Shown here: positions 16,621 through 58,825 of the stretch, in pieces
Layout of the letters: every line of letters starts with the position of its first letter
Numbering within the stretch: position 1 is the first letter of the stretch
Assembly (NCBI GenBank): GCA_910584665.1
Contig: CAJUBL010000005.1
Span: 866 to 64,865 of the forward strand
Direction of reading: 5' to 3'
Length of the DNA: 64,000 bases
Source of the DNA: an uncultured Muribaculaceae bacterium
GTDB taxonomy: Bacteria; Bacteroidota; Bacteroidia; Bacteroidales; Muribaculaceae
Translations under genes and position numbers: made by a program
Notes under the pieces: model-generated
What the model saw: the letters and a program-made list of their open reading frames with translations, nothing else
Databases searched by the model: none
What the model was told of the DNA's origin: nothing

Positions 16621-16704
16621 GATTACTGACGGTTTTATAAAACACTCCCGGCACGACCGGCATCACATGCCGCCAGACCGGGAGTCCACAAACCCAAAAA
16701 ATCT

Positions 16705-18597
16705 TTAATCGTGGAGATTTCTGGACCTGAGGTAATCGAGCAGCATAGCCGGACGGTCAGTCTGGATGATACGGCAACCCAGGCTATCGATAAGGTACCC
16801 CCATCCGTTGCTGACATTCCGCAGTGACGCATCGTCGTCATGGCCTCCCGCCATAGTGTTCCACAGCGTATTATACCAGATAAGCGACTTACCTTCAAGT
16901 TTATCCCTTATCTCCAGCGGCAACGCGTTGGAATCTTTCCTGAAAAGCAGCTCGAATGCCACAGGCTTCATCAGATCCATAAACTGCCCTACCGACTTCA
17001 TCGCATCATTTTTATCAAGATTGACTATAGGCATGTAAATCACATCGTCAGGATAGTGTCCGAACGCTTTCCTGACATCCGACGGAGATCTGGAACCTTT
17101 CATGACAATCTGGTGTGTGGTGCCTGTTTTTTCAAGCAGTGCCACCACCTCGTCAAAGTATCGGTCGGCCTTGTCAAGATTGAGCATGACTTTTCCCTTC
17201 GCCACAATAAGAGCCTCCTCGAGCGTAGGTACACGCTGTGATGTACGTATGCCGCAACCGTTGCGTAGTCTGAGAGTCTTTATATAACTCAGTGTTGTGT
17301 CAGCAACAGCCCCCTTGCCGGTAGTAGTGCGGTCAAGCGTCTCATCATGCATCAGTATGAGATGTCCGTCCCTGGTACGCTGTATATCAAGTTCGACGAT
17401 ATCCACACCCATATCTATGGCACTCCTCAGGCCCTCAAGCGAGTTCTCGGGATAGTTACGCCAGTCGGCCCGGTGAGAGGCAACGAGCACAGTCGAGTCT
17501 TCCATATCAGTCAGCCGTTCCCTTATTGCGGCAGTACGGTCTTTCAGAAATGGTTTGATCACCGGTATCAGCCGGGCCGTAATCAGTTCAAAACCGGCAT
17601 CGGTAGGATGCGTCCCGTCAACGGTCAGTTCATGGGATGAGCCGAGCGGCATTGCCGGGTCAATAAAGTAGAGATTATGATCACCGGCGGCAATCAGACG
17701 TTCCATTCCACGTGATGCAGCCTCACGCTTAAGTCGCTCGAAATTGCGCTTTTTAAGGTCAAAATTGCCTGTCTCACGCACCTCGGTCTGCAGGAACAGC
17801 AATGGGGTGTATGGTCTGTGTTCACGTATAAGCCTTACAAACGGCTCAAGCCGCAGGTCAATCTGTTCGGGCGACGGATTGGAAAACGCATCGATCACAT
17901 ACACATCGGCTTCGGTGTCGGCAATAAAATCCGCATAACAGCTGTCGAGTTTACACGATCCGCTGAACCCCAGATTGATAACTTCGGCATCAAGGGCACG
18001 CTGTAACCGCGCCGGATAAGCAAGACCCGGTCTCGAAGCCGATGCGCCGTGAGTGATACTGGAGCCGATAACGGCAACACGTTTACTCCATATGTAAGTA
18101 CCAGGAACACATATAGCCGTATCGGCGACACCTATCTCAAGAGTCTCTATTCTGTTCCATAGGGGCAGATAGAGCAGACACTCCTTAGGTCCCGGAGGCA
18201 TATTGTCGACAAGAACAGCCCTGTGGCTCAGCGAATCAGACGGAAGACCTACTCCGGCATGCACCCATGCCGAGTCAGTCCTGATGTAAAGATCCAGACC
18301 GCTCTGCATGAGTGGTGTAGTATTCTTACCGTCAGTACTGCCGGCGGTTGTCCACCGGGCCTTGATATATGGCGAGTCTGTGATAAACGAAACGGCCAGC
18401 CCTGTCGACAGTTCGCTGTATTTACCGATGGCTGAAGGCAGATCGCCATACCGGCTGAGATCAAGACGGGCATACGATGAGTCTATATCATAGGGTCTGT
18501 TGATTATATCTAGTTCCTGACAGTCGACATACCGTGAGGCCGCATGACCACACAGTGCGCCCAACAGCAGGATACATGTGCTGAAAATCTTTTGCAT
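16705..18597 (-). CDS. secreted SGNH-hydrolase / glycerophosphodiester phosphodiesterase (GDPD) fusion protein
   Basis: Signal peptide. The middle region has SGNH blocks (VIGSSITHG, GFSG, DGTHPTD). The C-terminus has the GDPD signature (SHRADWRNYPENSLEGL...VELDIQRTRDGHLILMHDETLDRTT). Confidence 0.8.
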   Translation of the reverse strand: MQKIFSTCILLLGALCGHAASRYVDCQELDIINRPYDIDSSYARLDLSRYGDLPSAIGKYSELSTGLAVSFITDSPYIKARWTTAGSTDGKNTTPLMQSGLDLYIRTDSAWVHAGVGLPSDSLSHRAVLVDNMPPGPKECLLYLPLWNRIETLEIGVADTAICVPGTYIWSKRVAVIGSSITHGASASRPGLAYPARLQRALDAEVINLGFSGSCKLDSCYADFIADTEADVYVIDAFSNPSPEQIDLRLEPFVRLIREHRPYTPLLFLQTEVRETGNFDLKKRNFERLKREAASRGMERLIAAGDHNLYFIDPAMPLGSSHELTVDGTHPTDAGFELITARLIPVIKPFLKDRTAAIRERLTDMEDSTVLVASHRADWRNYPENSLEGLRSAIDMGVDIVELDIQRTRDGHLILMHDETLDRTTTGKGAVADTTLSYIKTLRLRNGCGIRTSQRVPTLEEALIVAKGKVMLNLDKADRYFDEVVALLEKTGTTHQIVMKGSRSPSDVRKAFGHYPDDVIYMPIVNLDKNDAMKSVGQFMDLMKPVAFELLFRKDSNALPLEIRDKLEGKSLIWYNTLWNTMAGGHDDDASLRNVSNGWGYLIDSLGCRIIQTDRPAMLLDYLRSRNLHD

Positions 18598-42912: not shown

Positions 42913-44111
42913 GGCTCCACACGGCCAGGGTAGGCCTTCAACGCTTCACGAAGTACCACAAGAGCATGTCCAAGATCCTCTTTGTTAAGCACATAAGCCA
43001 TACGAACCTCATTACGGCCATGTCCCGGCGACGTATAGAATCCCGATGCGGGAGCCATAAATACAGTGGCTCCTTCATACTCGAAGTCACTGAGACACCA
43101 GCTGCAGAACCGGTCGGCATCGTCAACCGGCAGGCTCACGACTGTATAGAACGCACCCATAGGTATCGGAGAATAGCATCCGGGGATACGGTTAAGACCG
43201 TCAATCAGGAACTTACGACGCTCGACATATTCGTTATAGGTACGCAACATATAGTCGGCCGACGTATCTATCGAGGCTTCGGCCACAAGCTGACCCAACA
43301 ATGGCGGGCTGAGACGGGCCTGGCAGAACTTCATGACATTCTTCTTAAGTTCCTTATGCTTGGTAATAATAGCCCCGATGCGTATTCCGCACTCGTTATA
43401 ACGTTTTGACACTGAATCAATAAGGACCACCTGCTCCTCTATTCCCTCAAGATGGAAAGCCGAAATGTAGGGTGCTCCCGTATAACAGAACTCACGATAC
43501 ACCTCGTCACTGAACAGAAACAGGTCATGTTTCCTGACAAGATCACGTATCTGCTCCATCTCGCGGCGGGTATAAAGGTATCCGGTGGGATTGTTGGGGT
43601 TACATATGAGTATACCCTTGGTTTTCGGAGTGATAAGCTCCTCAAACTTTTCGACAGGGGGCAACGAGAAGCCATCCTCGATCGACGATGGCACTGTTAC
43701 GATCTTCGCGCCGGCCGAGATAGCAAACGCCATATAGTTGGCATAGGCCGGTTCAGGAACAATAATCTCGTCACCCGGATCCAGACAGGCCATGAAAGCG
43801 AAAAGCACAGCCTCCGATCCTCCTGTGGTGACTATGATATCATCGACATCGACGTTGATGTTGAACTTGTGGTAATACTGTTCCAGCTTCCTGCGAAGCG
43901 ACAGGAGACCCTCCGACGGGCTGTATTCCAATACCTTGCGGTCAATATGTCTCAAGGCCTCGAAAGCCTCGGGAGGTGTCGGCACATCGGGCTGACCGAT
44001 GTTGAGATGATAAACCTTTACACCGCGGGCCTTTGCGGCATTGGCCAGCGGAACAAGTTTTCGTATAGGTGATGCGGGCATTATTTCGCCGCGATGAGAA
44101 ATCGTTGGCAT
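42909..44111 (-). CDS. class I/II pyridoxal-phosphate-dependent aminotransferase (aspartate aminotransferase-like)
   Basis: 400 aa. NPNNPTG and the SVSKRYNECGIRIG PLP-lysine region. Confidence 0.9.
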   Translation of the reverse strand: MPTISHRGEIMPASPIRKLVPLANAAKARGVKVYHLNIGQPDVPTPPEAFEALRHIDRKVLEYSPSEGLLSLRRKLEQYYHKFNINVDVDDIIVTTGGSEAVLFAFMACLDPGDEIIVPEPAYANYMAFAISAGAKIVTVPSSIEDGFSLPPVEKFEELITPKTKGILICNPNNPTGYLYTRREMEQIRDLVRKHDLFLFSDEVYREFCYTGAPYISAFHLEGIEEQVVLIDSVSKRYNECGIRIGAIITKHKELKKNVMKFCQARLSPPLLGQLVAEASIDTSADYMLRTYNEYVERRKFLIDGLNRIPGCYSPIPMGAFYTVVSLPVDDADRFCSWCLSDFEYEGATVFMAPASGFYTSPGHGRNEVRMAYVLNKEDLGHALVVLREALKAYPGRVEP

Positions 44112-44265
44112 AATCAGTCCATGAATGGTTTTGAATTTGCAAAGATAGCGTTTTCAACTCAAAAAATATGTTTTTAAGAAATTTTTGATTGCATCTGACT
44201 CATTGGTTAAGCTACATTTTGTAATTTTACATCATAAATGAACAATTACCTAATATTAAGGATAT

Positions 44266-46380
44266 ATGAAGAAAACACTTCTTACCCTGTTGATAACTCC
44301 GATTATTTTTATGAGTCACGCTGAAAACAAACTACTCAAGCCGTTTGACACTCCGCTGTCAACAGCTCCATTCTCCGAGATAACAGTCAAAGATTATGCC
44401 GAGGCTATAGATCTGGGCATTGAGAAAGCCAACCGGGAAATCGAGGCCATATGCAACGCTCGGTCAGTTCCCGACTTTGACAATACCATTGTAGCTCTGG
44501 ACCGCACGGGTTCGGATCTCAATCGCGCTCTGGGACTTTTCTACAACCTTTGCGAGGCCAACAGTGACGACGAGATGATGGAACTGTCTCTGAATGCCGC
44601 ACCAAAACTAAGTGCTTATTCTACAGGAATCATACTCAACGAACGTTTATGGAACCGTGTGAAACAGGTATGGGATAACCGTAGCAGGATGAATCTTGAC
44701 ACCGAGGACATGATGCTGCTTACCAAGACTTACGACAGCTTTGCTCTGTCGGGCGCCAACCTGCAGGGTGATGACCGCGAGAAGTACAAAGCGTTGTCGT
44801 CAGAACTTTCTGAACTCACAACACGCTTCGGGCAGAATGTCCTGAAAGAACTTAACACTTACGAGATATGGCTCACAGCCAATGACCTTGACGGCCTGCC
44901 GGCCGACCTTATAGCCGAAGCGGCTGCATCGGCCGCCGAGAAAGGACGTGACGGTGAATACCGCTTCACTCTCGCCGCGCCCACCTACATGGCATTCATG
45001 AAATACAGTTCCCGTCGCGACCTGCGCGAGAAGATGAACCGCCTTTACACCGGCCGTAACATCAGGGGCGAATACAGCAACATGGAAATAATGAGCCGTA
45101 TAGCCGCCATACGTCTCGAGATTGCCAACCTGCTGGGTTCAAAGACCTATGCCGAGCAGTCGTTAAAGCGCACCATGGCCGGATCCCCAAAGGCAGTATA
45201 CGATCTTCTTGACAAACTGCGCGATGCCTACACCTCGGCCCTGCAGGCCGAGATGGCCGAACTGACGGCCTATGCCTCGGAACTTGAGGGAGAACCAGTC
45301 ACATTGATGCCATGGGATTACAGCTATTACAACAACAAACTGAAAAACGCCAAATATGCCTATGACGAAGAGGAGCTCCGCCCCTACTTCGAGCTGTCCA
45401 ATACGATAAAAGGCGTATTCGGACTTGCCACAAAGCTATACGGTGTCACATTCAGGAAACGAGATGACATCGAGGTATATCATCCTGATGTCACTGCATG
45501 GGAAGTATCTGACGCCGACGGCGACTACTTAGGTGTTCTCTATACCGACTTTTTTCCGCGCGATTCAAAACGTCCGGGAGCATGGATGACCAATTTCAGA
45601 GAGCAGAGCCACGATGCAGACGGAAACGACATACGCCCGCACGTGTCAATCGTGATGAATTTCACCAAACCGACCGCCGACAAGCCTTCGTTGCTCACCC
45701 CCTACGAGGTAGAGACGTTCCTTCACGAATTCGGCCACTCGCTCCACGGTCTTCTGTCAAAATGCAAGTACGAGTCACTGGCCGGCACATCCGTCTACCG
45801 CGACTTTGTCGAACTACCGTCACAATTCAACGAGAACTATCTGACAGAGAAAGAATTTCTCGATGGTTTCGCACGCCATTACATTACCGGAGAACCCATC
45901 CCTGCCGAACTCGTCGACAAGATCGTGAAATCGGCCCAGCATGGAGCCGCCTACCAGTGCATACGGCAGCTCGGCTTCGGCTATACCGACATGGCCTGGC
46001 ACACTATCACCGGACCGGTAACCGATCCCGTTACATTCGAGACCGAGGCTCTGAAGGGAGTACAGGTATTTGCACCTGTTGAAGGATCGATGATCTCGCC
46101 ACAGTTCAGCCATATCTTCTCGGGAGGCTACGCCGCCGGATATTACAGCTACAAATGGGCCGAAGTGCTTGACGCCGATGCCTTTGCCAAATTCAAGGAA
46201 AACGGGATCTTCGACAGTAAGACAGCCCGTCTGTTCCTCGACAACGTGCTGAGCCGTGGCGGTAGCGAAGATCCGGCCGAACTATACCGTCGGTTCCGAG
46301 GTCAGGATCCGACAATCGACGCGCTGCTCCGTCGTGACGGCATCACACCCCTGCCATCGCTAAAATCAGTGAAAGACTGA
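44266..46380 (+). CDS. dcp: M3 family peptidyl-dipeptidase
   Basis: 704 aa with a signal peptide. HEFGH zinc motif (FLHEFGHSLHG). Dcp/oligopeptidase A-like throughout. Confidence 0.9.
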   Translation: MKKTLLTLLITPIIFMSHAENKLLKPFDTPLSTAPFSEITVKDYAEAIDLGIEKANREIEAICNARSVPDFDNTIVALDRTGSDLNRALGLFYNLCEANSDDEMMELSLNAAPKLSAYSTGIILNERLWNRVKQVWDNRSRMNLDTEDMMLLTKTYDSFALSGANLQGDDREKYKALSSELSELTTRFGQNVLKELNTYEIWLTANDLDGLPADLIAEAAASAAEKGRDGEYRFTLAAPTYMAFMKYSSRRDLREKMNRLYTGRNIRGEYSNMEIMSRIAAIRLEIANLLGSKTYAEQSLKRTMAGSPKAVYDLLDKLRDAYTSALQAEMAELTAYASELEGEPVTLMPWDYSYYNNKLKNAKYAYDEEELRPYFELSNTIKGVFGLATKLYGVTFRKRDDIEVYHPDVTAWEVSDADGDYLGVLYTDFFPRDSKRPGAWMTNFREQSHDADGNDIRPHVSIVMNFTKPTADKPSLLTPYEVETFLHEFGHSLHGLLSKCKYESLAGTSVYRDFVELPSQFNENYLTEKEFLDGFARHYITGEPIPAELVDKIVKSAQHGAAYQCIRQLGFGYTDMAWHTITGPVTDPVTFETEALKGVQVFAPVEGSMISPQFSHIFSGGYAAGYYSYKWAEVLDADAFAKFKENGIFDSKTARLFLDNVLSRGGSEDPAELYRRFRGQDPTIDALLRRDGITPLPSLKSVKD

Positions 46381-46405
46381 CACATAACAAATATAATTCC
46401 GGCTT

Positions 46406-46443
46406 AGAATCAGGAGTTCCGCTTAAGCGGAACTCCTGATTCT
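46406..46443. terminator. perfect palindromic hairpin between convergent dcp and the island operon
   Basis: agaatcaggagttccgc ttaa gcggaactcctgattct: a 17-bp perfect stem with a 4-nt loop, followed by ttc on the plus strand. Confidence 0.7.
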
Positions 46444-46685
46444 TTCATAACAGCACCGACATCCACATAAAAATCACGCATACGCAATTCATTGTAAGTC
46501 CTGTTTTATTGGATAGGCCATCATTTTAGCTTTATGTCACTTGTGACACTTTTCTTCAATCGGCTGTTCAATATGTCGCAAATCTCTTTTCCTGTCATTG
46601 TCAGATTGTGAACGGGGATATTTTCTATTGCTCCGGTTTCTTTGAAATTAAATGTCCTCAATCTCTGCTTGAAATTCAAAATCGG

Positions 46686-47579
46686 TTATCGGTCGGGTTC
46701 ATTGTTGTTGAGGAATTTTCGGGCTGATGTTATTATGTCTTTCCATGATGTCGTGCCAAGATCGAAGGAAATAGCGCGGTCATAATCACTTTCAAGTCCT
46801 TTGTCCGAGGCTTTACGCATCGGTACTACTTCCAATGTACGCCCATCATGTTTAATATGCACGCTCGTCGAGTGCAAGTATAGCTGTCGCCATGAACGTT
46901 GCTTCATTGCCTTGATTAGCTCCGAGGATTTCAGTTCCACATACTTTTCATGCAGACTTGCATTGAAAATATCCATCAGAGTGTCCTCAAACGTCCCATT
47001 ATCGCAGTCAAGGGGAAGGAATTTAATCGGATAACTCATGTTGACATAATATATTGTCACAAATATATACTCCTTGTCGGTGCGGTATATCAAGCACGCC
47101 CCCGACCGTTCAAGTTCCGGGCAACGGTAATTATATCGTCGGTTAATCTTCTGCCAACGAATAACCGCCAGTATAACGGCAAGAATTACAAATACGGAAA
47201 CGAATCCATACGAAGGGCCGTCGTAATACTCAAACACAGTCATATTGTTTTCCGGATTGTCTTTCTGATATACCACGCCAATACTGTCACCAATAGCAAG
47301 ACCCTTGACAGCATAGTTTCCTCGGTATCGCAAACTATCAACATTGAAATAATAATCAATACGGGGTGTGTTACCAATACTATAGACCTTTGATACTACC
47401 GTTTTTGTGAAAACAGGATTGGATGCTACGGCGTTATGTTTCCGACCATCGAAATACAGTGCGACAATAGAAATTGGCACAAGAATCAGCATCATAGTGG
47501 CGATAGGCAACCATATATCACCGCGCTGCCCAAAGAAAAACCGATATGTCTTGCTGTCTGATTTCATTTCTTTATCCAT
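46686..47579 (-). CDS. membrane protein: DUF3592-like TM/beta-sandwich/TM module fused to an unknown cytoplasmic domain
   Basis: The ATG at 47579 (MDKEMKSD) overlaps the upstream stop. TM (IWLPIATMMLILVPISIVALYF), VVSKVYSIGNTPRIDYYFNVDSLRYRGNY...GDSIGVVYQKDNPENN, and a second TM (FVSVFVILAVILAVI). About 150 aa of C-terminal domain is unrecognised. Confidence 0.6.
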   Translation of the reverse strand: MDKEMKSDSKTYRFFFGQRGDIWLPIATMMLILVPISIVALYFDGRKHNAVASNPVFTKTVVSKVYSIGNTPRIDYYFNVDSLRYRGNYAVKGLAIGDSIGVVYQKDNPENNMTVFEYYDGPSYGFVSVFVILAVILAVIRWQKINRRYNYRCPELERSGACLIYRTDKEYIFVTIYYVNMSYPIKFLPLDCDNGTFEDTLMDIFNASLHEKYVELKSSELIKAMKQRSWRQLYLHSTSVHIKHDGRTLEVVPMRKASDKGLESDYDRAISFDLGTTSWKDIITSARKFLNNNEPDR

Positions 47580-47811
47580 GTTGGTGGACACCGAAGGATT
47601 CCAGTTTCTTCTCATCAAGATTGATTAGCACATCGACTGCATCGCTTCCGCCATCTTCAATCCAGATCAGCTGGCCTTTATCTTCAGAATCATCGGAAGC
47701 GATATAATCCTCTACTATTTTTTTGCTTATGAGTATCACCATAGCATAGTTAGTATCCCCATATTTCCAACCGAAATATTGCCGACGGTATCGCTCGTAG
47801 GGATATGCCAT
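47572..47811 (-). CDS. hypothetical small acidic protein
   Basis: 79 aa, no TM, ATG start. Translationally overlapped with the next gene. No family recognised. Confidence 0.45.
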   Translation of the reverse strand: MAYPYERYRRQYFGWKYGDTNYAMVILISKKIVEDYIASDDSEDKGQLIWIEDGGSDAVDVLINLDEKKLESFGVHQHG

Positions 47812-47837
47812 ATATTCCAGCCAACCTCCTGGATTGT

Positions 47838-48674
47838 CTATAAAATAGTCGCCATCGGCAGCTGGATGGAGTCGGCGAAATGCTTTATCAATATTTCACG
47901 AGCCGTTTCATATTGCGATTGTGTGAGCTGAAAAAAATCGGGACGCTCTATTGCGTAAAACCCAAGCTCCCCATTATCATAATCGCTTATAATCACATCA
48001 TCAGCCTCCTTTGGAATCGCAATCATGTAATTCTCAATCGGCGAGCCTTCCGAAATATCGCTCCATCTGTCTTTCCTGCTATCGTAAACATAATTGCCAT
48101 ACTCATGTCCCACGCATAACGTATAAGCATTCTTATCGCAGGAATATCTAAGATGAACATTATCATTTGCGAACAGGCTATCATTATCAATGCTGACATT
48201 AATTTCGCTTAAAGTTTTCGGGTATTGTCCGTGCCGGACGTGGAAAGCCTCAATATTATCAATAACTTGATTTTCGGGATAATTCCTGACACTCACAGTC
48301 AAATATAGCAAACCTGTGCCAAGCATCAACAATGCTACATATACCAGTCCTTCAATCTTCAGGATTTTCGTTTTTTCTTTGCTCGGCAATTTCTTCAAGA
48401 AAAGAAGAGGAATCTGTGATATTATGAAGGTAATTACCGTTACAACCAATGCTCCGATGAAACGGTAACTTACATATTCTCGCCATGGATGGAGATTTAT
48501 GTTTAGTCTCTGTTCTCCCAGTCCCATCAGACTAAAGAACAGAGCAAAGAATAGCCCTGACAACAGAAGCATCAAGCATACGGTCTTGAAAATATACAGT
48601 CCCGGCCTCGGCCACTTGACCATAAAGCCGACAAGCAGGATAATAACGCATATAATTATAATAATCTGAATCAT
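47838..48674 (-). CDS. hypothetical polytopic membrane protein with soluble C-terminal domain
   Basis: 278 aa. About 5 hydrophobic segments in the first 130 aa, followed by a ~140-aa soluble region. 3-nt gap from the upstream gene. Confidence 0.55.
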   Translation of the reverse strand: MIQIIIIICVIILLVGFMVKWPRPGLYIFKTVCLMLLLSGLFFALFFSLMGLGEQRLNINLHPWREYVSYRFIGALVVTVITFIISQIPLLFLKKLPSKEKTKILKIEGLVYVALLMLGTGLLYLTVSVRNYPENQVIDNIEAFHVRHGQYPKTLSEINVSIDNDSLFANDNVHLRYSCDKNAYTLCVGHEYGNYVYDSRKDRWSDISEGSPIENYMIAIPKEADDVIISDYDNGELGFYAIERPDFFQLTQSQYETAREILIKHFADSIQLPMATIL

Positions 48675-48677
48675 ACT

Positions 48678-49319
48678 CTATTTTGAGATTTTATTGACAA
48701 TAAACCATAAAAGGAATACTAATCCTGATGATACGACAAAAGAGAGGATTGTCAAAGGAGTTACCCACGGCCAACTTTTGTAATAGAATGTCTTCAATCT
48801 TGTTAGATCCGTCACAGCAGAGGGGGTTCTTCTCTGAGCTTCACTGAGTGATTTATATTGTGTTATGCTGTCTGTCTTGGTGTCTATTACAAAGTAACTT
48901 CCGGGTGTATCGGTATCGTCGATGTCATATCTCTCTCCCGAAATAGAATCGCCTGAAACCTTGATTTTAGTAACCCATTCAAATACGAACTTTCCGTCTT
49001 TATAGAGATATCCGGTAAAACATTCACGGTCGAAACGATCTGCCGGAGATTCTATCTGATAGCCGTTAGGCAAATCGGTCTTATAGTATCCATCCATTCC
49101 GCAACCGGTGTCAAAGATTGATGCACAGGCGAAACCTCCGATTAGACAAGTGAAATAGCACGAGTATATAAACACGAATGGCGATAACAATGCCAGTATG
49201 GTATTACGTTTCCGATGTTTCCTGCTTCGCCAACATACAATACCTGCCAATGGCAGTGCAATCGCTACTGCCAGCAAAGTAATGATTATCAGTTGTATTA
49301 TAATTACGATTAATATCAT
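48678..49319 (-). CDS. hypothetical membrane protein (TM-TM-ectodomain-TM), ectodomain related to that of 51497..52069
   Basis: 213 aa. The ectodomain motifs DGYYKTDLPNGYQI, VSGDSISG and YFVIDTKTDSITQY parallel those of the lipoprotein at 51497..52069. Confidence 0.55.
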   Translation of the reverse strand: MILIVIIIQLIIITLLAVAIALPLAGIVCWRSRKHRKRNTILALLSPFVFIYSCYFTCLIGGFACASIFDTGCGMDGYYKTDLPNGYQIESPADRFDRECFTGYLYKDGKFVFEWVTKIKVSGDSISGERYDIDDTDTPGSYFVIDTKTDSITQYKSLSEAQRRTPSAVTDLTRLKTFYYKSWPWVTPLTILSFVVSSGLVFLLWFIVNKISK

Positions 49320-49402
49320 TGTTTTAGCGGTTTAATAATCAAAAGGATAACATATACCCATAATGCGACAGTCACTCCCCACGCCCCAATAGTCCATTTT
49401 CG

Positions 49403-49618
49403 TCAGACTGTCGGCGGTAGATTCATAAATTCACGATAATAACTTTTAGCTCTTTTCCCATCAACCATAAACTGCAATATGACAAGTATGGCCAGTGAAA
49501 TCCATGCCAAAGTAAAATCATTCATGAGGAATATCCATGAGAATCCAATAGCCATAAGTATGCCGCTAATAAACGCCACATCAATAAATTTCCAAATGTT
49601 TTTATCAGTCGGTTTCAT
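49403..49618 (-). CDS. small two-TM membrane protein
   Basis: 71 aa with two hydrophobic helices. Its start overlaps the upstream stop as ATGA. Confidence 0.5.
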   Translation of the reverse strand: MKPTDKNIWKFIDVAFISGILMAIGFSWIFLMNDFTLAWISLAILVILQFMVDGKRAKSYYREFMNLPPTV

Positions 49619-50484
49619 ATCACTTTTCTGTATTCTGCGTCTATTTTTGAAATTTTATTCGACGAGCCATCGACTTCAATAAATATTCCGTCAGTTATGT
49701 TTTCATCTTTTGGATTTGGCTTAAATTCAACCATAAATGAATATTTATCCAGAGGGGGTCCTGAAAATCCGTCTTGAGGTTCAATTTTAATTGTTTTATA
49801 GGCGTATTGGAAGTCGGTATCATCAGAAACGATTTTAATTGTCCCTGCGGCAAGTTTATCGGCAACTTCTTTCGTGCAGTAATAACCGAATAATCGTTTC
49901 AAGTCATCGGCAGATGCCCCGACAGCCCGTTCGTTAAGATAGAGAGCCATGAATTCAGCCACTACACAAAAGCCATCAGCACCCATGTATTCCTGTAGAA
50001 CAATGATATCGGATTTACCATCAGGCAAAATTTGGTACAGCATATTCCAGCCATCGTCAGTATCAGGGAGAAAACATCCAAATGACACATAAATAGCGGA
50101 ATCCGAAGCCCAAAAGACATAACCTCCCCATTGCATAATATATTCTCCTTCGTTACCGACTACATCCATTGTCCGTATTTCCTTGTCGGCATATACTACC
50201 TTTTTGTCATACGACAGAGTGAGATAGACTGACGAATCTCTGACAGCCCAGTCATGTCGCCTAACGGTTACATCATTGGAATCTTTTAATGCTTTGACAG
50301 TCCAATGCCCGATAACGGTATCTTCAATTACCCTGCCTCTTATTTGTTCAGACTTGTTTTCATTTACAGAATCCTCAATCGTATATTGTGACATAGTATC
50401 ATCGGTCTTACGTCTTCCGTTGCAAGCCACAATCAATATTGATACGATAAATGTAAGAAATACAACATTAATAAAATTTCTCAT
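49615..50484 (-). CDS. hypothetical lipoprotein
   Basis: 289 aa with a lipoprotein signal (SILIVAC). No family recognised. Confidence 0.6.
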   Translation of the reverse strand: MRNFINVVFLTFIVSILIVACNGRRKTDDTMSQYTIEDSVNENKSEQIRGRVIEDTVIGHWTVKALKDSNDVTVRRHDWAVRDSSVYLTLSYDKKVVYADKEIRTMDVVGNEGEYIMQWGGYVFWASDSAIYVSFGCFLPDTDDGWNMLYQILPDGKSDIIVLQEYMGADGFCVVAEFMALYLNERAVGASADDLKRLFGYYCTKEVADKLAAGTIKIVSDDTDFQYAYKTIKIEPQDGFSGPPLDKYSFMVEFKPNPKDENITDGIFIEVDGSSNKISKIDAEYRKVI

Positions 50485-50497
50485 ATTTAACTCTCTT

Positions 50498-50788
50498 TCA
50501 TTCAGATCCTACGGTTAATGCTTTGACAGTATAATTCCAACTCCATAGATATGCAGCCCATAGGAGTAATATCGTTATCGTCAGACATATCGTAAGACTA
50601 ATGCCGATATCTCTCTTACCAGCTCTTATCATATTAGTAATTTGAGCCAAAAGCAGAATCAAATTGAGAATCAGAAATGTGCGATTTACGAATGCCGAAC
50701 CTCCTGCAAACAATACGCCAAAGGTTATTACCCACACTATTACGGATAACACCACGATAATCCATTTTGCTTTATATATCAGTTCCAT
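50498..50788 (-). CDS. small three-TM membrane protein
   Basis: The ATG at 50788 (MELIYKAKWIIVVLSV...) gives 96 aa with three hydrophobic helices. Overlaps the end of the upstream gene by 17 nt. Confidence 0.45.
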   Translation of the reverse strand: MELIYKAKWIIVVLSVIVWVITFGVLFAGGSAFVNRTFLILNLILLLAQITNMIRAGKRDIGISLTICLTITILLLWAAYLWSWNYTVKALTVGSE

Positions 50789-51500
50789 TATTCTGCCTTT
50801 TATATATGAATTGATTTGGCAACACATCAGATTCGGTATTATATCTATCGAAAGATGGTTTTACATATTCCTCAAGATTATGTTCTATCTCATCCTCCCA
50901 TAGCTTCAACAGATCGGTATCAGAAGTGATACAATACCATTTATCCTCATGCACAGGCAGTAAATTTCCGATTCGTTCTCTAACAGCGCACTCATATTCT
51001 TTCGGGAAAGAGGGCACAATCCCGGCGTGTTTGGAGTCGTAATGCTCCAGCCAAAAACTATCGGTATATATGCCTATGTTCAAAGTAAATCTGATTATCT
51101 CCTTGTTATTCCATTTGTCATTCTGTATATTCACGCAATATCCAATCGCTTCATTTCTTTTGAAGAAATGATTGCCACGCCTTTTGAAATCATCATCTTT
51201 AAGGAAATCTGCGATTTTGTCAAATATGAAAGTCCCGTTGCCTTGCAGATCCATTTTGGGTAAAGATGGTTTATCAAATCGCCACAACAATGCCATACCA
51301 AGCAATATTATTGAGCCAAATATCGGAGTGTGCCATGTTATTGTTTGTTCAGTAGGATTATGGAATCGACAAGTCGCTATGCTTGTTGAACTGACATTTC
51401 CCACAAACATAATCAGTCCTATGCACAGCAATATAGCCGAGCATGTCAGGAAAATTGCAAATCCTCTCCGATGAAACCTATTGCTTGCGTCCTTTTTCAT
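50772..51500 (-). CDS. membrane-anchored protein with DUF4304-like C-terminal domain
   Basis: 242 aa. Two N-terminal TM segments, then FKRRGNHFFKRNEAIGYCVNIQNDKWNNKEIIRFTLNIGIY, which fits my recollection of DUF4304. ATGA overlap with the upstream gene. Confidence 0.55.
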   Translation of the reverse strand: MKKDASNRFHRRGFAIFLTCSAILLCIGLIMFVGNVSSTSIATCRFHNPTEQTITWHTPIFGSIILLGMALLWRFDKPSLPKMDLQGNGTFIFDKIADFLKDDDFKRRGNHFFKRNEAIGYCVNIQNDKWNNKEIIRFTLNIGIYTDSFWLEHYDSKHAGIVPSFPKEYECAVRERIGNLLPVHEDKWYCITSDTDLLKLWEDEIEHNLEEYVKPSFDRYNTESDVLPNQFIYKRQNNGTDI

Positions 51501-52069
51501 TTCGATGGATTAAACAATAGCCGGTTATTATATGCGAAATCATCATACAGGCTATCTACATGATGAAGCTGTGGCTGATCGATGCCTCGTTTGTTGAGGG
51601 CTGTCAACCATTCCTCTCTCGTTTCATGCCATTCAACAGAGTCAGTCGGCACATCAATTATAACAAAGCGCCGTATTTCCCAACCGTCATATTTATGACT
51701 TGGCATCTCCTTTAATGGAGTGAGATTTTCTGTATAATAAAGATATATTACAGAATCCTGCAATCCAACGCTCTCTACTGAACGCCGGACCGTGACGAGT
51801 GAAAATCCACCGAACTCATCTTTGTTATCGCGACGGATGCAGTCCCACACTTTCCCATCATCACCCCATAGTGTAGAACATAATTCATACGGTGCAATCA
51901 ATGGCACACGGTAATAATCCCATGCGCCCGGATCAGAATAAAAGTCGGTGCGGAAAGTGGCATTAATTTCCTCTTTAATACGCTCCTTAACAGTTTCGTA
52001 TTTAGACTTTATTCTTGAACAACCGCACATCAGTACAATAGAAATGCAAAAAAACAAAGTTATTCTCAT
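51497..52069 (-). CDS. hypothetical lipoprotein (ectodomain related to 48678..49319)
   Basis: The ATG at 52069 (MRITLFFCISIVLMCGCS) gives a lipoprotein-like signal. Motifs WDYYRVPLIAPYEL, VGLQDSVIY and RFVIIDVPTDSVEW. Confidence 0.55.
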   Translation of the reverse strand: MRITLFFCISIVLMCGCSRIKSKYETVKERIKEEINATFRTDFYSDPGAWDYYRVPLIAPYELCSTLWGDDGKVWDCIRRDNKDEFGGFSLVTVRRSVESVGLQDSVIYLYYTENLTPLKEMPSHKYDGWEIRRFVIIDVPTDSVEWHETREEWLTALNKRGIDQPQLHHVDSLYDDFAYNNRLLFNPSK

Positions 52070-52242
52070 CGCTTGCCTCCTTTCCGATTTATCAGCCAAA
52101 GTAATCCGCCCCAGAACAACACATTGCCGCCCACAAGCAGAATGTTGGCAGTTCTGCCCGGAGAATCGAAACAGAATATAGTGCTGAACAAGAATAGAAA
52201 GACTATGACAGCCGATGCTATTGCTTTACCGAGCTGTTCCAT
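52066..52242 (-). CDS. small two-TM membrane protein (58 aa, below the ORF-track cutoff)
   Basis: Hand translation: MEQLGKAIASAVIVFLFLFSTIFCFDSPGRTANILLVGGNVLFWGGLLWLINRKGGKR. The ATG lies 2 nt after the upstream stop, and its own stop overlaps the next ATG (ATGA). Confidence 0.45.
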   Translation of the reverse strand: MEQLGKAIASAVIVFLFLFSTIFCFDSPGRTANILLVGGNVLFWGGLLWLINRKGGKR

Positions 52243-52244
52243 GC

Positions 52245-53180
52245 CTATTTCTTTTTGTGTTTGAACTTGATGGTTTTCCTGGCGTTACGCTTGGGATATT
52301 TGACCTTGATTATTACCGGATCATCATAGCTCTCGGCTGTAATACGGAGGGTAGCTTCTTTCAGCGGCTTTCCTGTATCGTCATCTTTTAGACCGATGCA
52401 ATAGTCCCAAGGGATTGAACATGGGTGTTTATCACCATAATAGTCAGGGTAGATGTAATATGAATCTTCCTCTCCATTCTCGTCAATCCAGATCCGTTCA
52501 ACATCAAAACTATCCAAGTCAATACGATTCCCATTTTCATCAAAGACATTCAGATCGAGATAATGCTCCTGTTTTTTGTTTTCAACCACTACCACATCAT
52601 CAGTTAAACCCATCACGGCAGGATCAAGTGTGATTTCAACATTATTCATATCTTCCGTCACAACTATAATCTTCGATTCAAAACCGACATATTTCACTTC
52701 CAGTGTATCACCTATACAGACCGGCAAACCGAATTTTCCGTCTAAATCGGCAGTCGCGCCCAAACCTATTCGCTGATTGAAAATTGTCGCTCCTATCAAT
52801 GGTTCTTTAACGACAGTACCATCCGGTAATGTATCTGCACTCAATACAGTTCCTTTCAGCTTGATTGTATCGGTCATGGCAGGAATGGCGCCTTTCATGA
52901 AAACTTTTGATTCATCAGATAACTGTGCACCTGATGTCATCGGCGACAACAATGTAAGAGCACCGGCCGAGATTCCGGCGAGTATAACGGCTTTACCCAT
53001 GCGCTGACGGGAGCGAAGCTGCTGCTCAAGGTAGCGCACTTCGGCCTCGCATTTTGGGCATGTGCCGAGGCAGTCGCCCTTGTAACGACACTCCGAAGTT
53101 ACATACTCGATGTCATTCGCCTCAGCTATCTGCCTACGGATTTCTTTCAATATTTTGCAGGTCTGCTTTCCTCGTGCCAT
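52245..53180 (-). CDS. Cys-rich N-terminal domain / single TM / CarboxypepD_reg-like domain protein
   Basis: 311 aa. The N-terminal ~60 aa carry C31-x5-C37-x3-C41-x2-C44 (SECRYKGDCLGTCPKCE). TM (AVILAGISAGALTLL). LKGTVLS...IGATIFNQRIGLGATADLDGKFGL...VKYVGFE is a carboxypeptidase-regulatory-like fold. Lys-rich C-terminus. Confidence 0.7.
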   Translation of the reverse strand: MARGKQTCKILKEIRRQIAEANDIEYVTSECRYKGDCLGTCPKCEAEVRYLEQQLRSRQRMGKAVILAGISAGALTLLSPMTSGAQLSDESKVFMKGAIPAMTDTIKLKGTVLSADTLPDGTVVKEPLIGATIFNQRIGLGATADLDGKFGLPVCIGDTLEVKYVGFESKIIVVTEDMNNVEITLDPAVMGLTDDVVVVENKKQEHYLDLNVFDENGNRIDLDSFDVERIWIDENGEEDSYYIYPDYYGDKHPCSIPWDYCIGLKDDDTGKPLKEATLRITAESYDDPVIIKVKYPKRNARKTIKFKHKKK

Positions 53181-53182
53181 AG

Positions 53183-53806
53183 TCAGTGTTTTCGGATTTG
53201 ATAGGTGAATAAATCGAACCGGGTAAAGCCGAGAGCTTCAAGCGCAACACGGCTTGCCTCGCGGTCGGCATCAGTGTTGAACTCCGGTATCAGCGGTATG
53301 CGGATAACACAGTCATTCTGCCGCCCACTATCGGCTATCAGCCGGAGATTGGAGAGAACAAGGGAATTGTCTTGCCCGGTATAGGTGCGGTAAATCTCAG
53401 GATTCATGTCCTTGATGTCGATAATCAGTGTATTTACCACAGGGAGCAAGGATGCGATATTGTCTGCCGGGACATTGAGCGACGTTTCAAGATTTATCTG
53501 CCAGCCGTCACCGCACAGTTCGCGGAAGCATCGGATAAAACCGGGACGCAGGCACGGCTCACCGCCGCCGAATGTCACGCCGCCATTGGTGGCAAGGAAA
53601 TAAAGCTCGTCGATGCGGACTTCCCGATACAGCGATTCGGAAATATATTCCCTGAATCTGTCACCATCGCCGAGCGACTGGGGATTGAGGCAATACCGGC
53701 AACGTAGCGGGCATCCGTGAAAAGCCACAAGCGTAGTGACACCGTCGCCGTCGGTAGAAAGGCGATGACGCGCTATACCGATAATTCTTACAAGACTGTT
53801 TTCCAT
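53183..53806 (-). CDS. small radical SAM protein, glycyl-radical-enzyme-activase/NrdG-like
   Basis: The ATG at 53806 (MENSLVRIIG; the track ORF starts at a TTG at 53824) gives 207 aa. DGDGVTTLVAFHGCPLRCRYCLNP (CX3CX2C) and GGVTFGGGEP. No SPASM domain. Its stop lies 2 nt before the next ATG. Confidence 0.8.
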   Translation of the reverse strand: MENSLVRIIGIARHRLSTDGDGVTTLVAFHGCPLRCRYCLNPQSLGDGDRFREYISESLYREVRIDELYFLATNGGVTFGGGEPCLRPGFIRCFRELCGDGWQINLETSLNVPADNIASLLPVVNTLIIDIKDMNPEIYRTYTGQDNSLVLSNLRLIADSGRQNDCVIRIPLIPEFNTDADREASRVALEALGFTRFDLFTYQIRKH

Positions 53807-53874
53807 ACCGTGCCGATTTTCCAAGCCGTCATTCTACTTCATTATCCCATAGAGCCAAAGAATGGTTCACACTG

Positions 53875-53882
53875 CAAATTTA
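53875..53882 (-). promoter_or_regulatory. candidate Bacteroides-type -7 promoter box (TAAATTTG) for the island operon
   Basis: The reverse complement of caaattta matches TAnnTTTG, ~70 nt upstream of the ATG at 53806. No clear -33 TTTG was seen. Confidence 0.3.
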
Positions 53883-54038
53883 ACGAGAATAAATGACTTC
53901 AGATATGACATTTGTCACATTCTTACGGGATATGATGATTATAATTTAAAATATATACTGAGCCTTTTACACAGACTGTAATGTTAATAAATATTTATTG
54001 CTCTTTTGCTAAAATATAGTTGTCTGTATGCGGATAGG

Positions 54039-54428
54039 TTAAATGCAATCTGAATCTGTGCGGTTTTCACGATTGTATCGTTCTTCGTATTCAGTAATAA
54101 TTCGCTCAATATCCTTTTTAAGCTCCGGAATATGGCACATTACCAAATTCCACAGAAATGTCGGTTACACATTGTCGTAAGCGTGGATGATTCGGTTCCG
54201 TGTGTCAATTATGGCTCTCGCATTTGGAATTTCTACAGATGGGTCAGCTTTTTTTATTCGATTTATTGCCTCACCCATAATCTCTGTTTTGCGTTCAACT
54301 ACGCATTTACGCATAATGTCTTTCTCAAACAAATCATATCGGTTGGGAAAGTCAACAAAGCAACTCTGCATATCGTTGATTGCGTCCAACACATCCTGGA
54401 GATATGTAAGGATTCCCTCAGTAGCCAT
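54039..54428 (-). pseudogene. hepT: HepT (DUF86) RNase toxin interrupted by an in-frame TAA at 54165-54167
   Basis: The 87-aa ORF ends ...TRNRIIHAYDNV* (RX4HXY motif present). The same frame continues for 41 codons (PTFLWNLVMCHIPELKKDIERIITEYEE...) to a TAA at 54039-54041, restoring a ~129-aa DUF86-length protein. Confidence 0.8.
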
Positions 54429-54726
54429 AAATCATCTGTTTTGTACGGTTGACATTGGCAATGAAGTATTTGTTCCGAAGTCCTCCTTCTTCAATCAAAT
54501 CAACCTTTCTACCGAAAAGGCTCTCCAATGCGTCACGAAAATCGAAGTAATTTGTAACATAATCCCACTTCTCATGGTCTGCGGTATCGAAGTCCACAAG
54601 TAAGTCCACATCGCTTTGGTCGTTGAATCTATCTGTAAGGATAGAGCCAAAGACAGCCAGAGTCTTGACCTTGTGCTTTCGGCAAAGGTCAATGATTCGT
54701 TGTAGATTCAGTTCAATCAACTTCAT
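54418..54726 (-). CDS. mntA: MntA-type nucleotidyltransferase antitoxin
   Basis: 102 aa. LAVFGSILTDRFNDQSDVDLLVDF (GS...DxD minimal nucleotidyltransferase motif). Overlaps the hepT start by 11 nt. Confidence 0.85.
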   Translation of the reverse strand: MKLIELNLQRIIDLCRKHKVKTLAVFGSILTDRFNDQSDVDLLVDFDTADHEKWDYVTNYFDFRDALESLFGRKVDLIEEGGLRNKYFIANVNRTKQMIYGY

Positions 54727-54746
54727 AGACTGTTGTGTTACACGTG

Positions 54747-54754
54747 CAAATATA
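54747..54754 (-). promoter_or_regulatory. candidate Bacteroides-type -7 promoter box (TATATTTG) for mntA-hepT
   Basis: The reverse complement of caaatata matches TAnnTTTG, ~21 nt upstream of the mntA ATG. No -33 element was seen. Confidence 0.3.
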
Positions 54755-54937
54755 GCGAATCTTTCTGATATATAAACGCTCTCCCACTAAAATCGTTGAA
54801 CCATCCCACGGCTTTTTCATTTAAGATCTGATTACCCTTTCCCAAAAATATTGATATTTTATAGCAATTATACTGTTGGCGACGTGCACATTCAATGTCG
54901 GATTTATCAGCAATGGGATTAATCAACACAGGATGGT

Positions 54938-54989
54938 GAAAATCGTGGAGGGTGCACCGTAAAGCCAACGATACACCCTCCACGATTTC
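54938..54989 (-). terminator. hairpin downstream of rsmD at the right island edge
   Basis: gaaaatcgtggagggtg (54938-54954) pairs with caccctccacgatttc (54974-54989): a 16-bp stem with a 19-nt loop, starting 22 nt after the rsmD stop on the minus strand. Confidence 0.5.
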
Positions 54990-55010: not shown

Positions 55011-55556
55011 TCACTTCTCCATATCGAAGATGCTGAAGTTCACACTACCGTAGACACGATGTTCCAGAAAGTGGGGAAGCGATGAGAAATCGTATTTACG
55101 GCTATGCTCCATAATGAAAAGAGACGTCGGCTTCACAACCTTTGATTCAAGGATGGCCATCGGGATATCACCAAAGTCGGGCAAGTCATATGGAGGGTCA
55201 GCAAAAACTATGTCATAACCTGTCGTTGCGGTCCTGATGTATTGCATTACATCACCTTTCACAAGCCGCAGACGGTCGTTGGCGTTAAGCTCAGCCGCTA
55301 CTTTGCGTATGAAATTATATTGAGTCGATGCCTTCTCGACGGCAGTCACCATGCTGCATCCGCGCGACAGGAACTCAAAGGTGACAGCTCCCGTGCCGGC
55401 AAAAAGATCAAGTGCCGTAGGCTCGCTGTCGAGATCAAAAAGATTCTCGATGACATTGAAAATGTTTTCACGTGCAAAATCAGTTGTCGGACGCGCGGTG
55501 ATGTTGGTAGGAACATCAAATCTACGTCGGCCGTATTTTCCTCTTATTATTCGCAT
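55011..55556 (-). CDS. rsmD: 16S rRNA (guanine966-N2)-methyltransferase
   Basis: 181 aa. RPTTDFARENIFN, DLFAGTGAVTFEFLSRG, FADPPY. Confidence 0.9.
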   Translation of the reverse strand: MRIIRGKYGRRRFDVPTNITARPTTDFARENIFNVIENLFDLDSEPTALDLFAGTGAVTFEFLSRGCSMVTAVEKASTQYNFIRKVAAELNANDRLRLVKGDVMQYIRTATTGYDIVFADPPYDLPDFGDIPMAILESKVVKPTSLFIMEHSRKYDFSSLPHFLEHRVYGSVNFSIFDMEK

Positions 55557-58477: not shown

Positions 58478-58536
58478 TACGATATCATCTTAAAAATCTC
58501 AAGTTCCAGCAGAAAGCTGAAACTTGAAAAAACGTG

Positions 58537-58608
58537 TACCCCGGAGCAGAATCGAACTGCTATCTAAAGTTTAGGAAACTTCTATTCTATCCGTTGAACT
58601 ACCAGGGC
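58537..58608 (-). tRNA. tRNA-Arg (anticodon CCT)
   Basis: Hand-folded 72-nt cloverleaf: GCCCTGG TA GTTC AACGGATA GAAT A GAAGT TTCCTAA ACTTT AGAT AGCAG TTCGATT CTGCT CCGGGGT A. The acceptor stem has two G-U pairs. No encoded CCA. Confidence 0.75.
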
Positions 58609-58825
58609 ATCGGTATCGGGGTACAAAGATAGATGAAAAAACTTAATCGAGCAATATACCGGTCGATTTTTTATCCGATGTTTTTATCTGACTTTGCGAC
58701 CGGAGGTTTTCCGAAAGCTCTTACCGGCAATCAATACAGCATCTTTTTCAAATTATCTCCCGACGTAAAAAACTTTTCGCATTCTGCCGGTGTAAAACTC
58801 ACCGTTTTTATATACATTTGCAGGT

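Follow-up and report, generated by a model that had tools for sequence, protein, structure and literature searches.

A low-G+C island between dcp and rsmD of a Muribaculaceae bacterium carries a radical-SAM-headed cassette array that may be a polyimmunity locus

What kind of element is an AT-rich block of small, mostly anonymous genes lodged between two core genes of a gut bacterium, in which no mobility gene can be recognised? This question is raised by a 64,000-nucleotide (nt) stretch of DNA from an uncultured Muribaculaceae bacterium (contig CAJUBL010000005.1), hereafter the window, to which all positions refer, and in which the interval 46406-54989, hereafter the island, separates dcp from rsmD. 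Our analyses indicate that the island was very probably acquired horizontally, and that most of it belongs, almost certainly, to a family of operons in which a gene for a radical S-adenosylmethionine (radical-SAM) enzyme and a gene for a cysteine-rich membrane protein precede an array of short co-directional cassettes. As for what the array does, we lean towards a polyimmunity locus devoid of a recombinase. How firmly this overall reading can be held depends on its least certain step, namely whether the cargo confers immunity, and on that our judgement is evenly balanced.

The island departs markedly from its surroundings. Its guanine-plus-cytosine (G+C) content is 41.4%, against 50.4% in the remaining window; 1-kb windows within it drop to 37.6-42.2%, compared with a mean of 50.4% (standard deviation 3.4) outside, and tetranucleotide distances in 4-kb windows reach z = 16 over the outside distribution. 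The original prediction, made by eye from the sequence, had proposed a low-G+C island from three line counts (23/60 at 49321, 23/60 at 50521 and 34/60 in the dcp line at 45001), which were exact on recount, and had suggested the windowed statistics that now bear it out so strongly. Composition is nevertheless uneven along the island, the radical-SAM gene (53183-53806) having 52% G+C. The minus strand carries every open reading frame (ORF) of any length in the island, namely 14 genes and one gene fragment, and separate gene calls on conspecific contigs reproduced the 14 minus-strand genes originally listed. The flanking core genes had also been named correctly: dcp, on the plus strand (44266-46380), encodes a Peptidase_M3 protein whose best matches are 66-71% identical proteins of Muribaculaceae metagenome-assembled genomes, and rsmD lies on the minus strand (55011-55556). 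The dcp matches and the origin of identical contigs both point to a Muribaculaceae host, and sample names suggest mouse gut as its most likely habitat. Within the island, Pfam and NCBIfam matches were limited to MntA, HepT, radical-SAM, CarbopepD_reg_2, DUF4304 and a C-terminal fragment of the STM3941 family.

A syntenic site without the island, which the original prediction had proposed to seek in relatives, was found in a congeneric contig (L211, JGI 3300010163; L-numbers denote comparison contigs and loci from related genomes and metagenomes). It was located through rsmD homologues and not through dcp homologues, the 80 best of which, taken from species-representative genomes, did not exceed 71% identity to the dcp of the window and in no case had rsmD, the aminotransferase gene or a radical-SAM operon nearby. 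In L211, rsmD and dcp are convergent and lie 58 bp apart, the spacer holding a single terminator hairpin and nothing else; in the window, 8,630 bp separate the rsmD stop (55011) from the dcp stop (46380). Collinearity of the two sequences extends at least 9 kb to either side (Big_5 - DUF3822 - rsmD, then convergent dcp, aminotransferase, FtsX, RsfS and FtsH), with protein identities of 86% for rsmD, 87% for dcp, 95% for the aminotransferase and 79% for the Big_5 protein. Given this collinearity and the 58-bp spacer, the 8,630 bp constitute an insertion relative to the congener, and horizontal acquisition of the island is very probable. The prediction had named as its refutation the presence of the same interval in all relatives together with unremarkable composition; here, composition deviates and one relative lacks the interval.

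We considered whether flanking homology had been imported along with the island, and rejected this because dcp and rsmD are evenly similar to L211 throughout, nucleotide identity staying at 70-85% up to both stop codons. The core genes of the window share 77% DNA identity with those of L211, a level at which the intergenic bases do not align, so that a short target duplication is neither visible nor excludable. In agreement with the original survey by eye, our searches revealed no flanking direct repeats at the island edges, no TnpA, integrase or Y1 transposase in the island gene annotation and no match to a tyrosine recombinase anywhere in the window (XerD query, phmmer, six-frame translations), and the closest tRNA gene (tRNA-Arg CCT, 58536-58608) lies 3.5 kb beyond the island. 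Thus, of the features by which genomic islands are recognised, deviant composition and absence from the syntenic site of a relative are both present; mobility genes (integrase, transposase), a neighbouring tRNA and flanking direct repeats are not.

The identity of the inserted DNA emerged from comparison with other hosts. A metagenome scan with the 207-amino-acid (aa) radical-SAM protein retrieved at least 80 other loci from gut Bacteroidales, whose homologues are 77-91% identical to that of the window. In 64 of the 66 loci with enough sequence, the gene is directly followed by one encoding what we refer to as the N-domain, and in the other two this second gene is present but split. The N-domain is a segment of about 65 aa, predicted to be cytoplasmic, in which all five cysteines and the motif GDCxGTCPxC are invariant across genera. 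Muribaculaceae, Prevotella and Bacteroides together contain over 1,000 related sequences at 65-90% identity, and those that bear a name are annotated 'energy transducer TonB'. The N-domain matched no Pfam family above threshold (a zinc ribbon was hit weakly, E = 0.04), a profile search against PDB sequences returned nothing significant, and its structure model, with a predicted local distance difference test (pLDDT) score of 59.9, was too poor for a structure search.

The usual gene order in these loci is radical-SAM, N-domain + TonB_C (about 265 aa, sometimes with two TonB_C repeats), N-domain + CarbopepD_reg_2 (about 310 aa) and a 58-aa protein with two transmembrane (TM) segments. In the window, the radical-SAM gene is followed on the same strand by a 311-aa gene (52245-53180), encoding the five-cysteine N-domain, one TM segment and a periplasmic CarbopepD_reg_2 domain resembling the N-terminal extension (NTE) of SusC transporters (PDB 9hfj, 6ytc), and then by the 58-aa two-TM gene (52066-52242), which in about 20 loci is usually the first after the N-domain genes. 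The TonB_C member that most relatives have is missing from the window; in a conspecific contig (L082), such a paralogue precedes the position of the 311-aa gene. In many N-domain + TonB_C proteins (e.g. L082 12377-13168), the hydrophobic segment ends in a lipobox-like VSGC or MSGC (alignment columns ~95-108). If read as a lipobox, this would place a 62-aa cysteine-rich domain ahead of a lipoprotein-like signal peptide, cleavage of which would free the N-domain as a small membrane peptide.

The radical-SAM protein resembles the activases PflA and NrdG, aligning end to end with PflA (TIGR02493, 90 bits) and carrying a CX3CX2C motif. It differs from them in scoring below every NCBIfam cut-off (the best match, TIGR02494, reached 132 bits against a cut-off of 174) and in its surroundings, neither the window nor the related loci showing a glycyl-radical enzyme. 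The N-domain proteins can be likened to TonB in that siblings carry a genuine TonB_C domain, and are set apart by their extra 65-aa five-cysteine cytoplasmic domain.

A shared promoter region precedes these genes. In most loci a CRP-type box (TGTGACA-AA-TGTCACA) lies upstream of the radical-SAM gene, with the Bacteroidetes -7 element TAnnTTTG about 20 nt downstream of it; in the window, on the minus strand, the corresponding region (53875-53919) comprises the box TGTGACAAATGTCATA (53904-53919, TGTGA-N6-TCATA), the only one of its kind in the 64 kb, and the -7 element TAAATTTG (53875-53882). Position 53919 is also the 5' limit of similarity to the related loci, and the conserved unit begins at about this point and not at the hairpin about 1 kb further out, near rsmD. 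A gene for a cyclic-nucleotide-binding (Crp/Fnr-type) regulator adjoins the operon in 27 loci, the window not being among them. In 10 loci (L103, L104, L119, L120, L125, L129 and others), a 580-690-aa protein with ParB_N and HTH_ParB domains is encoded just upstream of the radical-SAM gene. ParB-like genes are associated with conjugative elements, and this neighbour hints that some copies of the operon reside on conjugative or other mobile elements.

Of the 48 loci in which at least 7 kb is available downstream of the head genes, 38 continue into 3 to 18 co-directional low-G+C genes. Clustering of 1,488 ORFs showed that the same families recur in these arrays in different orders and combinations, and seven of the window's cassette families have homologues in other arrays. 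The window locus is thus, almost certainly, a member of this radical-SAM/N-domain cassette-array family. Its own array, counted as 11 co-directional cassettes with a cargo G+C of 40.4%, is read entirely from the minus strand with junctions of -4 to +26 nt, save one of 83 nt, and is probably co-transcribed, judging from its layout. Ten of the 11 cassettes are membrane-anchored or lipoproteins.

From its promoter-proximal end, the array contains a predicted lipoprotein of 190 aa (51497-52069); a 242-aa protein with two TM segments and a DUF4304 domain (50772-51500; PF14137, E = 3e-18), homologues of which occur in the arrays of Muribaculum intestinale and others; a 96-aa protein with three TM-like segments (50498-50788), whose family (c16) is found in nine arrays; a 289-aa predicted lipoprotein (49615-50484); and a 71-aa protein with two TM-like segments (49403-49618), whose start codon overlaps the stop of the preceding gene (ATGA). 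These are followed by a 213-aa protein in which a central domain is flanked by two TM segments (48678-49319), with homologues in four other arrays; a 278-aa protein with four N-terminal TM-like segments and a soluble C-terminal domain (47838-48674); a soluble 79-aa protein of no family (47572-47811); and a protein of 293 aa, or 310 aa from a TTG start (46686-47567), with two TM-like segments, no Pfam family and homologues in the L120 and L130 arrays. The last ORF, of 52 aa (46521-46679), is an STM3941-family remnant covering profile positions 118-157 of 157 and is 87% identical in DNA to the end of the L120 array.

Similarity at the DNA level reveals how widely these cassettes circulate. The window is 88.9% identical to L102 over 50799-52091, 88.2% to L104 over 50776-52084 and 84.5% over 47652-49565 (the host flanks of L104 having 57% G+C), 80% to L105 over 49615-50788, and 92% to L125 over 51846-52092. 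Cassettes are thus 80-92% identical to those of unrelated hosts, against 77% for core genes compared with the congener. Across 39 loci with host flanks of 42-60% G+C, radical-SAM genes have 52 +/- 1.8% G+C, N-domain genes 46% and cargo 40 +/- 1.8%, and the correlation with host G+C is negligible for each (r = 0.11, 0.006 and 0.14, respectively). On these values, operon and array are foreign in every host in which they were found.

These comparisons also bear on an ancestral presence of the locus between rsmD and dcp, with L211 having lost it by deletion between terminators. Only one empty site was found, the island is present in all conspecific contigs, and arrays lie beside convergent M3-peptidase genes in two other Muribaculaceae lineages, as ancestry would lead one to expect. 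Those M3 genes are, however, other paralogues, which share 41.6% and 55.7% identity with the dcp of the window; at seven dcp loci of more distant Muribaculaceae, neither a radical-SAM gene nor an array lies within 10 kb; and the cassettes are 80-92% identical in DNA to arrays of hosts of very different G+C, against 77% for core genes compared with the congener, with no drift of island composition towards that of its host. We therefore regard an ancestral origin followed by loss as very unlikely, and acquisition as the better account. Cross-genus circulation, together with cassette-level exchange, argues for arrival by recombination of incoming DNA.

The proximity to peptidase genes deserves description in its own right. 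In three Muribaculaceae lineages, represented by the window, by L205-L207 of M. intestinale (13121-15343) and by L212 (18828-20666), an array runs towards a convergent Peptidase_M3 gene. That of M. intestinale is the paralogue 41.6% identical to the window's dcp and that of L212 the one at 55.7%, and in L212 the array is separated from the peptidase gene by several other genes and a transposase fragment. Among the 80 loci, an M3 peptidase gene adjoins only that of M. intestinale, and rsmD adjoins none. The pairing could reflect chance, an insertion preference or a functional link.

Within the species, the array turns over against an otherwise unchanged background. Three conspecific contigs are 100% identical to the window in their flanks and differ inside the island. 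L095 matches 44000-50634 perfectly save for 85 mismatches, all confined to 48693-49104, the central domain of the 213-aa cassette, for which it holds a divergent allele; L090 shares this allele and then enters a different cassette past 49312; and L082 departs from the window at 52963 with its extra N-domain + TonB_C gene. Cassettes are therefore gained, lost and swapped by recombination within the array. The swapped allele has a ratio of nonsynonymous to synonymous polymorphism (pN/pS) of 0.33-0.40 and is best read as imported divergence; positive selection on this cassette was considered and set aside, this ratio giving no evidence of an elevated dN/dS. Some cassettes in the related loci are placed between regulator and radical-SAM gene, or between radical-SAM and N-domain genes. 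A tyrosine-recombinase-like gene (family c42) is found at the distal array end in L123, L141, L137 and L153.

We infer that such recombination is aided by the repeated N-domain genes and by conserved junction sequences. The junction in question is GAAAGGAGGCAAGCGATGA, present in the window at 52066-52084 on the minus strand, at the 3' end of the 58-aa gene, and composed of a Shine-Dalgarno-like AGGAGG and a TGA stop overlapping the next ATG start. The upstream ORF ends in ...KGGKR, an ending seen on proteins of several unrelated families, and the DNA often continues AACTGA. In 1.18 Mb of related loci the motif occurs 78 times on the array strand against twice on the other, and 1.44 Mb of unrelated Bacteroidota loci contain no copy. 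The window has one exact copy, 0.03 being expected by chance, and similarity to both L102 and L104 starts at it. Bacteroidetes seldom use Shine-Dalgarno pairing, which makes the conservation of the motif noteworthy. It marks only about one fifth of the junctions, and an exact scan of viral contigs returned 23 matches, almost all of them ordinary ribosome-binding sites of unrelated, often high-G+C phages. Because the 19-mer is an ordinary ribosome-binding context in phages, it is not diagnostic outside the array and may serve translation rather than recombination; translational coupling, recombination or both may be its role. A copy with three mismatches, GAAAGTGGGGAAGCGATGA, lies at 55067-55085 on the plus strand, antisense within the 3' end of rsmD; about 0.03 such copies are expected by chance, and it is probably a coincidence.

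What might the cargo do? Pfam scans of 110 representatives of the pool recognised Imm40 (c13, 10 members), Imm32 (two members), SUKH-1, DMP19 (c22, eight members) and ankyrin families, as well as DKNYY (four members), DUF1877, DUF2750, bPH and TPR. Among 357 cargo proteins 76% have at least one TM-like segment, compared with 22% among 806 proteins of the flanks, and the Imm40, DMP19 and DUF4304 domains each follow a membrane anchor at the N terminus. Because the pool is shared across genera and includes recognised anti-toxin immunity families, and because the array matches polyimmunity loci (PMC3482391) and acquired interbacterial defence (AID) arrays (bioRxiv 10.1101/471110) in layout, composition and variability, a recombinase-less polyimmunity locus is the reading of the array that we somewhat favour, and an immunity function of the cargo itself seems to us an even prospect.

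Several observations weigh against it. None of the 11 window cassettes matches a named immunity family, DUF4304 and the STM3941 fragment being the only ones recognised at all; the AlphaFold2 model of the DUF4304 protein has a pLDDT of 65.5 and retrieved no solved immunity protein from the PDB, Foldseek returning nothing below E = 0.5; and most pool representatives match no family. No toxin gene, secretion system or recombinase lies nearby. The window has a single intact copy of a junction motif that also forms part of phage ribosome-binding contexts, and the case for gain, rather than loss in L211, draws on one empty site, composition and cross-host similarity. Finally, a co-directional array in L212 (5455-12283) contains relatives of the pool (DUF4304, c182, c131, c38 and c55) and the 5 kb upstream of it include neither a radical-SAM nor an N-domain gene; because this array has no head, head and array may not be functionally tied, and may be linked by location and promoter alone.

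The same membrane bias would suit other adaptive envelope cargo, with phage-receptor masking, superinfection exclusion, surface variation or stress proteins gathered in one hotspot. Most families are unannotated, membrane proteins or lipoproteins make up 76% of the pool and all but one of the 11 window cassettes, and a patch swapped between strains in the 213-aa cassette befits any arms race. Yet the annotated minority of the pool consists of polymorphic-toxin immunity families and not of known phage-defence families, and PADLOC found no match for the radical-SAM gene, the N-domain gene or the six cassettes scanned, so that we consider such cargo unlikely, if still plausible. A general anti-phage role for the island was likewise not retained, MntA, as part of candidate system PDC-S09, being all that PADLOC matched.

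The constancy of the head invites another explanation, in which cargo and head act in a single pathway: the radical-SAM enzyme would modify the cysteine-rich N-domain, and the small membrane proteins would be partners or substrates of TonB-like transport or signalling under Crp/Fnr-type control. The succession of radical-SAM and N-domain genes is strict (66 of 66 loci, with the latter split in two), the five cysteines are invariant across genera, promoter and CRP box are conserved, and cassettes sometimes lie among regulator, radical-SAM and N-domain genes. Pathway subunits would hardly be expected to differ almost wholly between loci and even between strains, as the cargo does; cargo G+C differs from that of the head everywhere, and the related array in L212 dispenses with the head altogether. 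We hold a single pathway to be quite improbable, and return to polyimmunity as the preferred reading of the array.

A more ambitious version of that reading, which we offer tentatively and regard as possible rather than probable, is that the radical-SAM enzyme, the five-cysteine TonB/NTE-like proteins and the 58-aa protein constitute, instead of a passive landing pad, a head dedicated to a second class of AID system in gut Bacteroidales, one that is independent of recombinases. A Crp/Fnr-type signal would switch on the operon, TonB-like proteins would act as decoys or gates, rotating membrane-tethered immunity domains would intercept imported toxins at the inner membrane, and exchange would proceed through the junctions and the N-domain repeats.

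The remainder of the island is unrelated to this operon. A toxin-antitoxin pair at its upstream edge consists of an MntA-type nucleotidyltransferase antitoxin gene (54418-54726, minus strand; PF01909, PF18765) overlapping by 11 nt a HepT toxin gene (54039-54428, minus strand; PF01934). Both the overlap of nucleotidyltransferase and HEPN toxin genes and the retained Rx4HxY motif (RNRIIHAY) are as in MntA/HepT type VII pairs; unlike in these, an in-frame TAA (54165-54167) after codon 87 ends the toxin of the window prematurely, a stop taking the place of residue 88 of 129. The original prediction of an MntA/HepT addiction module thus stands with respect to the pair and its location and fails with respect to a working toxin. 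The stop is present in six of the seven conspecific contigs that cover the codon; the exception, L083, has a tyrosine codon there, encodes all 129 residues and differs from the window by one base over 6.5 kb. The antitoxin gene is intact in all conspecific contigs. In this strain, a single base makes HepT a pseudogene. No other locus examined has MntA/HepT beside the radical-SAM gene, and because of this absence the pair is a separate passenger, apart from the recurrent operon. The island proposed as a single anonymous unit consequently holds as an 8.6-kb acquired interval, and divides as a unit into a toxin-antitoxin pair and a recurrent operon with its cassette array.

Two hairpins had been taken to mark the edges of this interval. 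Both are real and are the two strongest found in the 64 kb. The left one, 25 nt past the dcp stop, is the 17-bp-stem perfect palindrome originally described (46406-46443, with a 4-nt loop) and folds equally on both strands (-31 kcal/mol, z = -7). The right one (54940-54988), 21 nt past the rsmD stop and followed by UUUUC on the minus strand, is more stable on that strand (-37.9 kcal/mol, z = -8) than on the plus strand (-28.8 kcal/mol); a Watson-Crick-only scan of the window, which detected two other, weaker hairpins, did not recover it because its stem mismatches become G-U pairs in RNA. The sole Rfam match in the region, below threshold, was to the terminator end of CsrB.

A pair so stable, bracketing the island, could suggest recombination or attachment sites of an IS200/IS605-like or integron attC-like element that delivered it. 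The two hairpins share no sequence relatedness, however, and each lies 21-25 nt past a core-gene stop with a T-run on the strand of that gene; the empty site of L211 already has, at the same place, a single hairpin with a 12-bp stem of different sequence and T-runs; no TnpA, integrase or Y1 transposase accompanies them; and the right hairpin lies about 1 kb beyond 53919, where similarity to the related loci stops. Delivery by such an element is extremely unlikely. Because they stand near core-gene stops, are mutually unrelated and have a counterpart in the empty site, we read the hairpins as ordinary insulating terminators of dcp and rsmD and not as edge marks of an element, the left palindrome being a bidirectional terminator between dcp and the array and the right hairpin the terminator of rsmD. 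The M. intestinale locus likewise ends in another hairpin ahead of its convergent neighbour.

Other relatives, closer to the window by rsmD than L211, show quite different DNA at the 3' side of this gene. Directly after the gene, L208 (rsmD 92% identical) has an ECF sigma/FecR/SusC/SusD set (10563-17712) and L209/210 (87% identical) a beta-helix gene (L209 10580-12235); this side of rsmD is a rearrangement hotspot in the clade. The gap between the glycosyltransferase and Big_5 genes is a second variable spot, possibly associated with a tRNA: in the window (58478-58825) it contains tRNA-Arg alone, and in L211 (4862-6674) it is about 2.3 kb longer and includes four small minus-strand genes that lack annotation.

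Taken together, a plausible course of events can be outlined. The 58-bp convergent spacer between rsmD and dcp would have received 8.6 kb in two unrelated parts, the MntA/HepT type VII pair, whose toxin is broken in this strain, and an operon in which a CRP-box promoter would drive the radical-SAM gene, the N-domain membrane protein, the 58-aa membrane protein and then the 11-cassette array. The cassettes may pre-arm the cell envelope against the toxins of competitors, as in AID systems. They turn over by recombination inside the array, probably helped by junctions and repeated N-domain genes, and the two hairpins, as terminators, insulate rsmD, dcp and the array from one another.

Orphan-immunity arrays are thought to shape coexistence in the gut. 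The present locus indicates that arrays of this style also ride behind a different and extremely conserved head (radical-SAM 77-91% and N-domain 65-90% identity across hosts of 42-60% G+C); they pass from genus to genus and change among conspecific strains whose flanks are 100% identical. For most of the 80 loci, about 10 kb of surrounding sequence shows no recombinase, and in none does a recombinase stand at the head of an array; searches that rely on a recombinase will miss radical-SAM-headed arrays. The locus makes testable the movement of cassettes without a dedicated recombinase, the membrane tethering of Imm40 and DMP19, and the action of a PflA-like radical-SAM enzyme on a five-cysteine TonB-like protein. 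The literature searched contained no description of such a locus, no paper on DUF4304 and none joining 'orphan immunity' with 'radical SAM'; the combination of 'radical SAM', TonB, Bacteroidales and immunity led only to unrelated reviews, and neither 'radical SAM' nor 'TonB' appears in the portions consulted of PMC3482391 and of the 2025 paper on recombinase-associated AID (rAID).

Among known systems, the closest in style is rAID-1, defined by a 5' XerD-like recombinase followed by at least two co-directional genes with a G+C content of at most 41% (Ross et al. 2019, bioRxiv 10.1101/471110; PMC12247911). The window array shares with it short co-directional genes within that G+C limit (11 cassettes, 40.4%), residence in gut Bacteroidales, strain-variable content, foreign-looking composition and a pool including polymorphic-toxin immunity families such as SUKH. 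Conserved sequence also marks gene junctions in both, possibly with different motifs. The window array differs in its head of radical-SAM and cysteine-rich TonB/NTE-like genes behind a CRP-box promoter, in its mostly membrane-anchored cargo and in the recombinase. The rAID-1 definition demands at least 44% identity to BF9343_RS08045; our search, which used a XerD query, gave no match in the window; about six of the 80 related loci yielded recombinase-like ORFs, never 5' of the array. Lacking the recombinase, the window array is not rAID-1.

Integron arrays offer a second parallel, with a fixed 5' platform bearing the promoter, promoter-less cassettes in one orientation, a repeated junction element and shuffling between hosts. 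Here, unlike in integrons, there is no IntI, and what recurs at the junctions is a Shine-Dalgarno-like stop/start overlap of 19-25 nt and not a folded attC, recurrent attC-like inverted repeats being absent from the cassette junctions. The heterogeneous polyimmunity loci, as described in the portion consulted of Zhang et al. (2012, PMC3482391), which also reports XerC/D neighbours for several of them, are defined by recognised immunity domains, of which the 11 window cassettes carry none; they resemble the window locus in their tandem, co-directional and apparently polycistronic unrelated small proteins, in content that differs between strains of one species and in being usually one per contig context. 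With its tandem, tight and strain-variable array, and not yet through recognised content, the locus fits the heterogeneous polyimmunity class in architecture.

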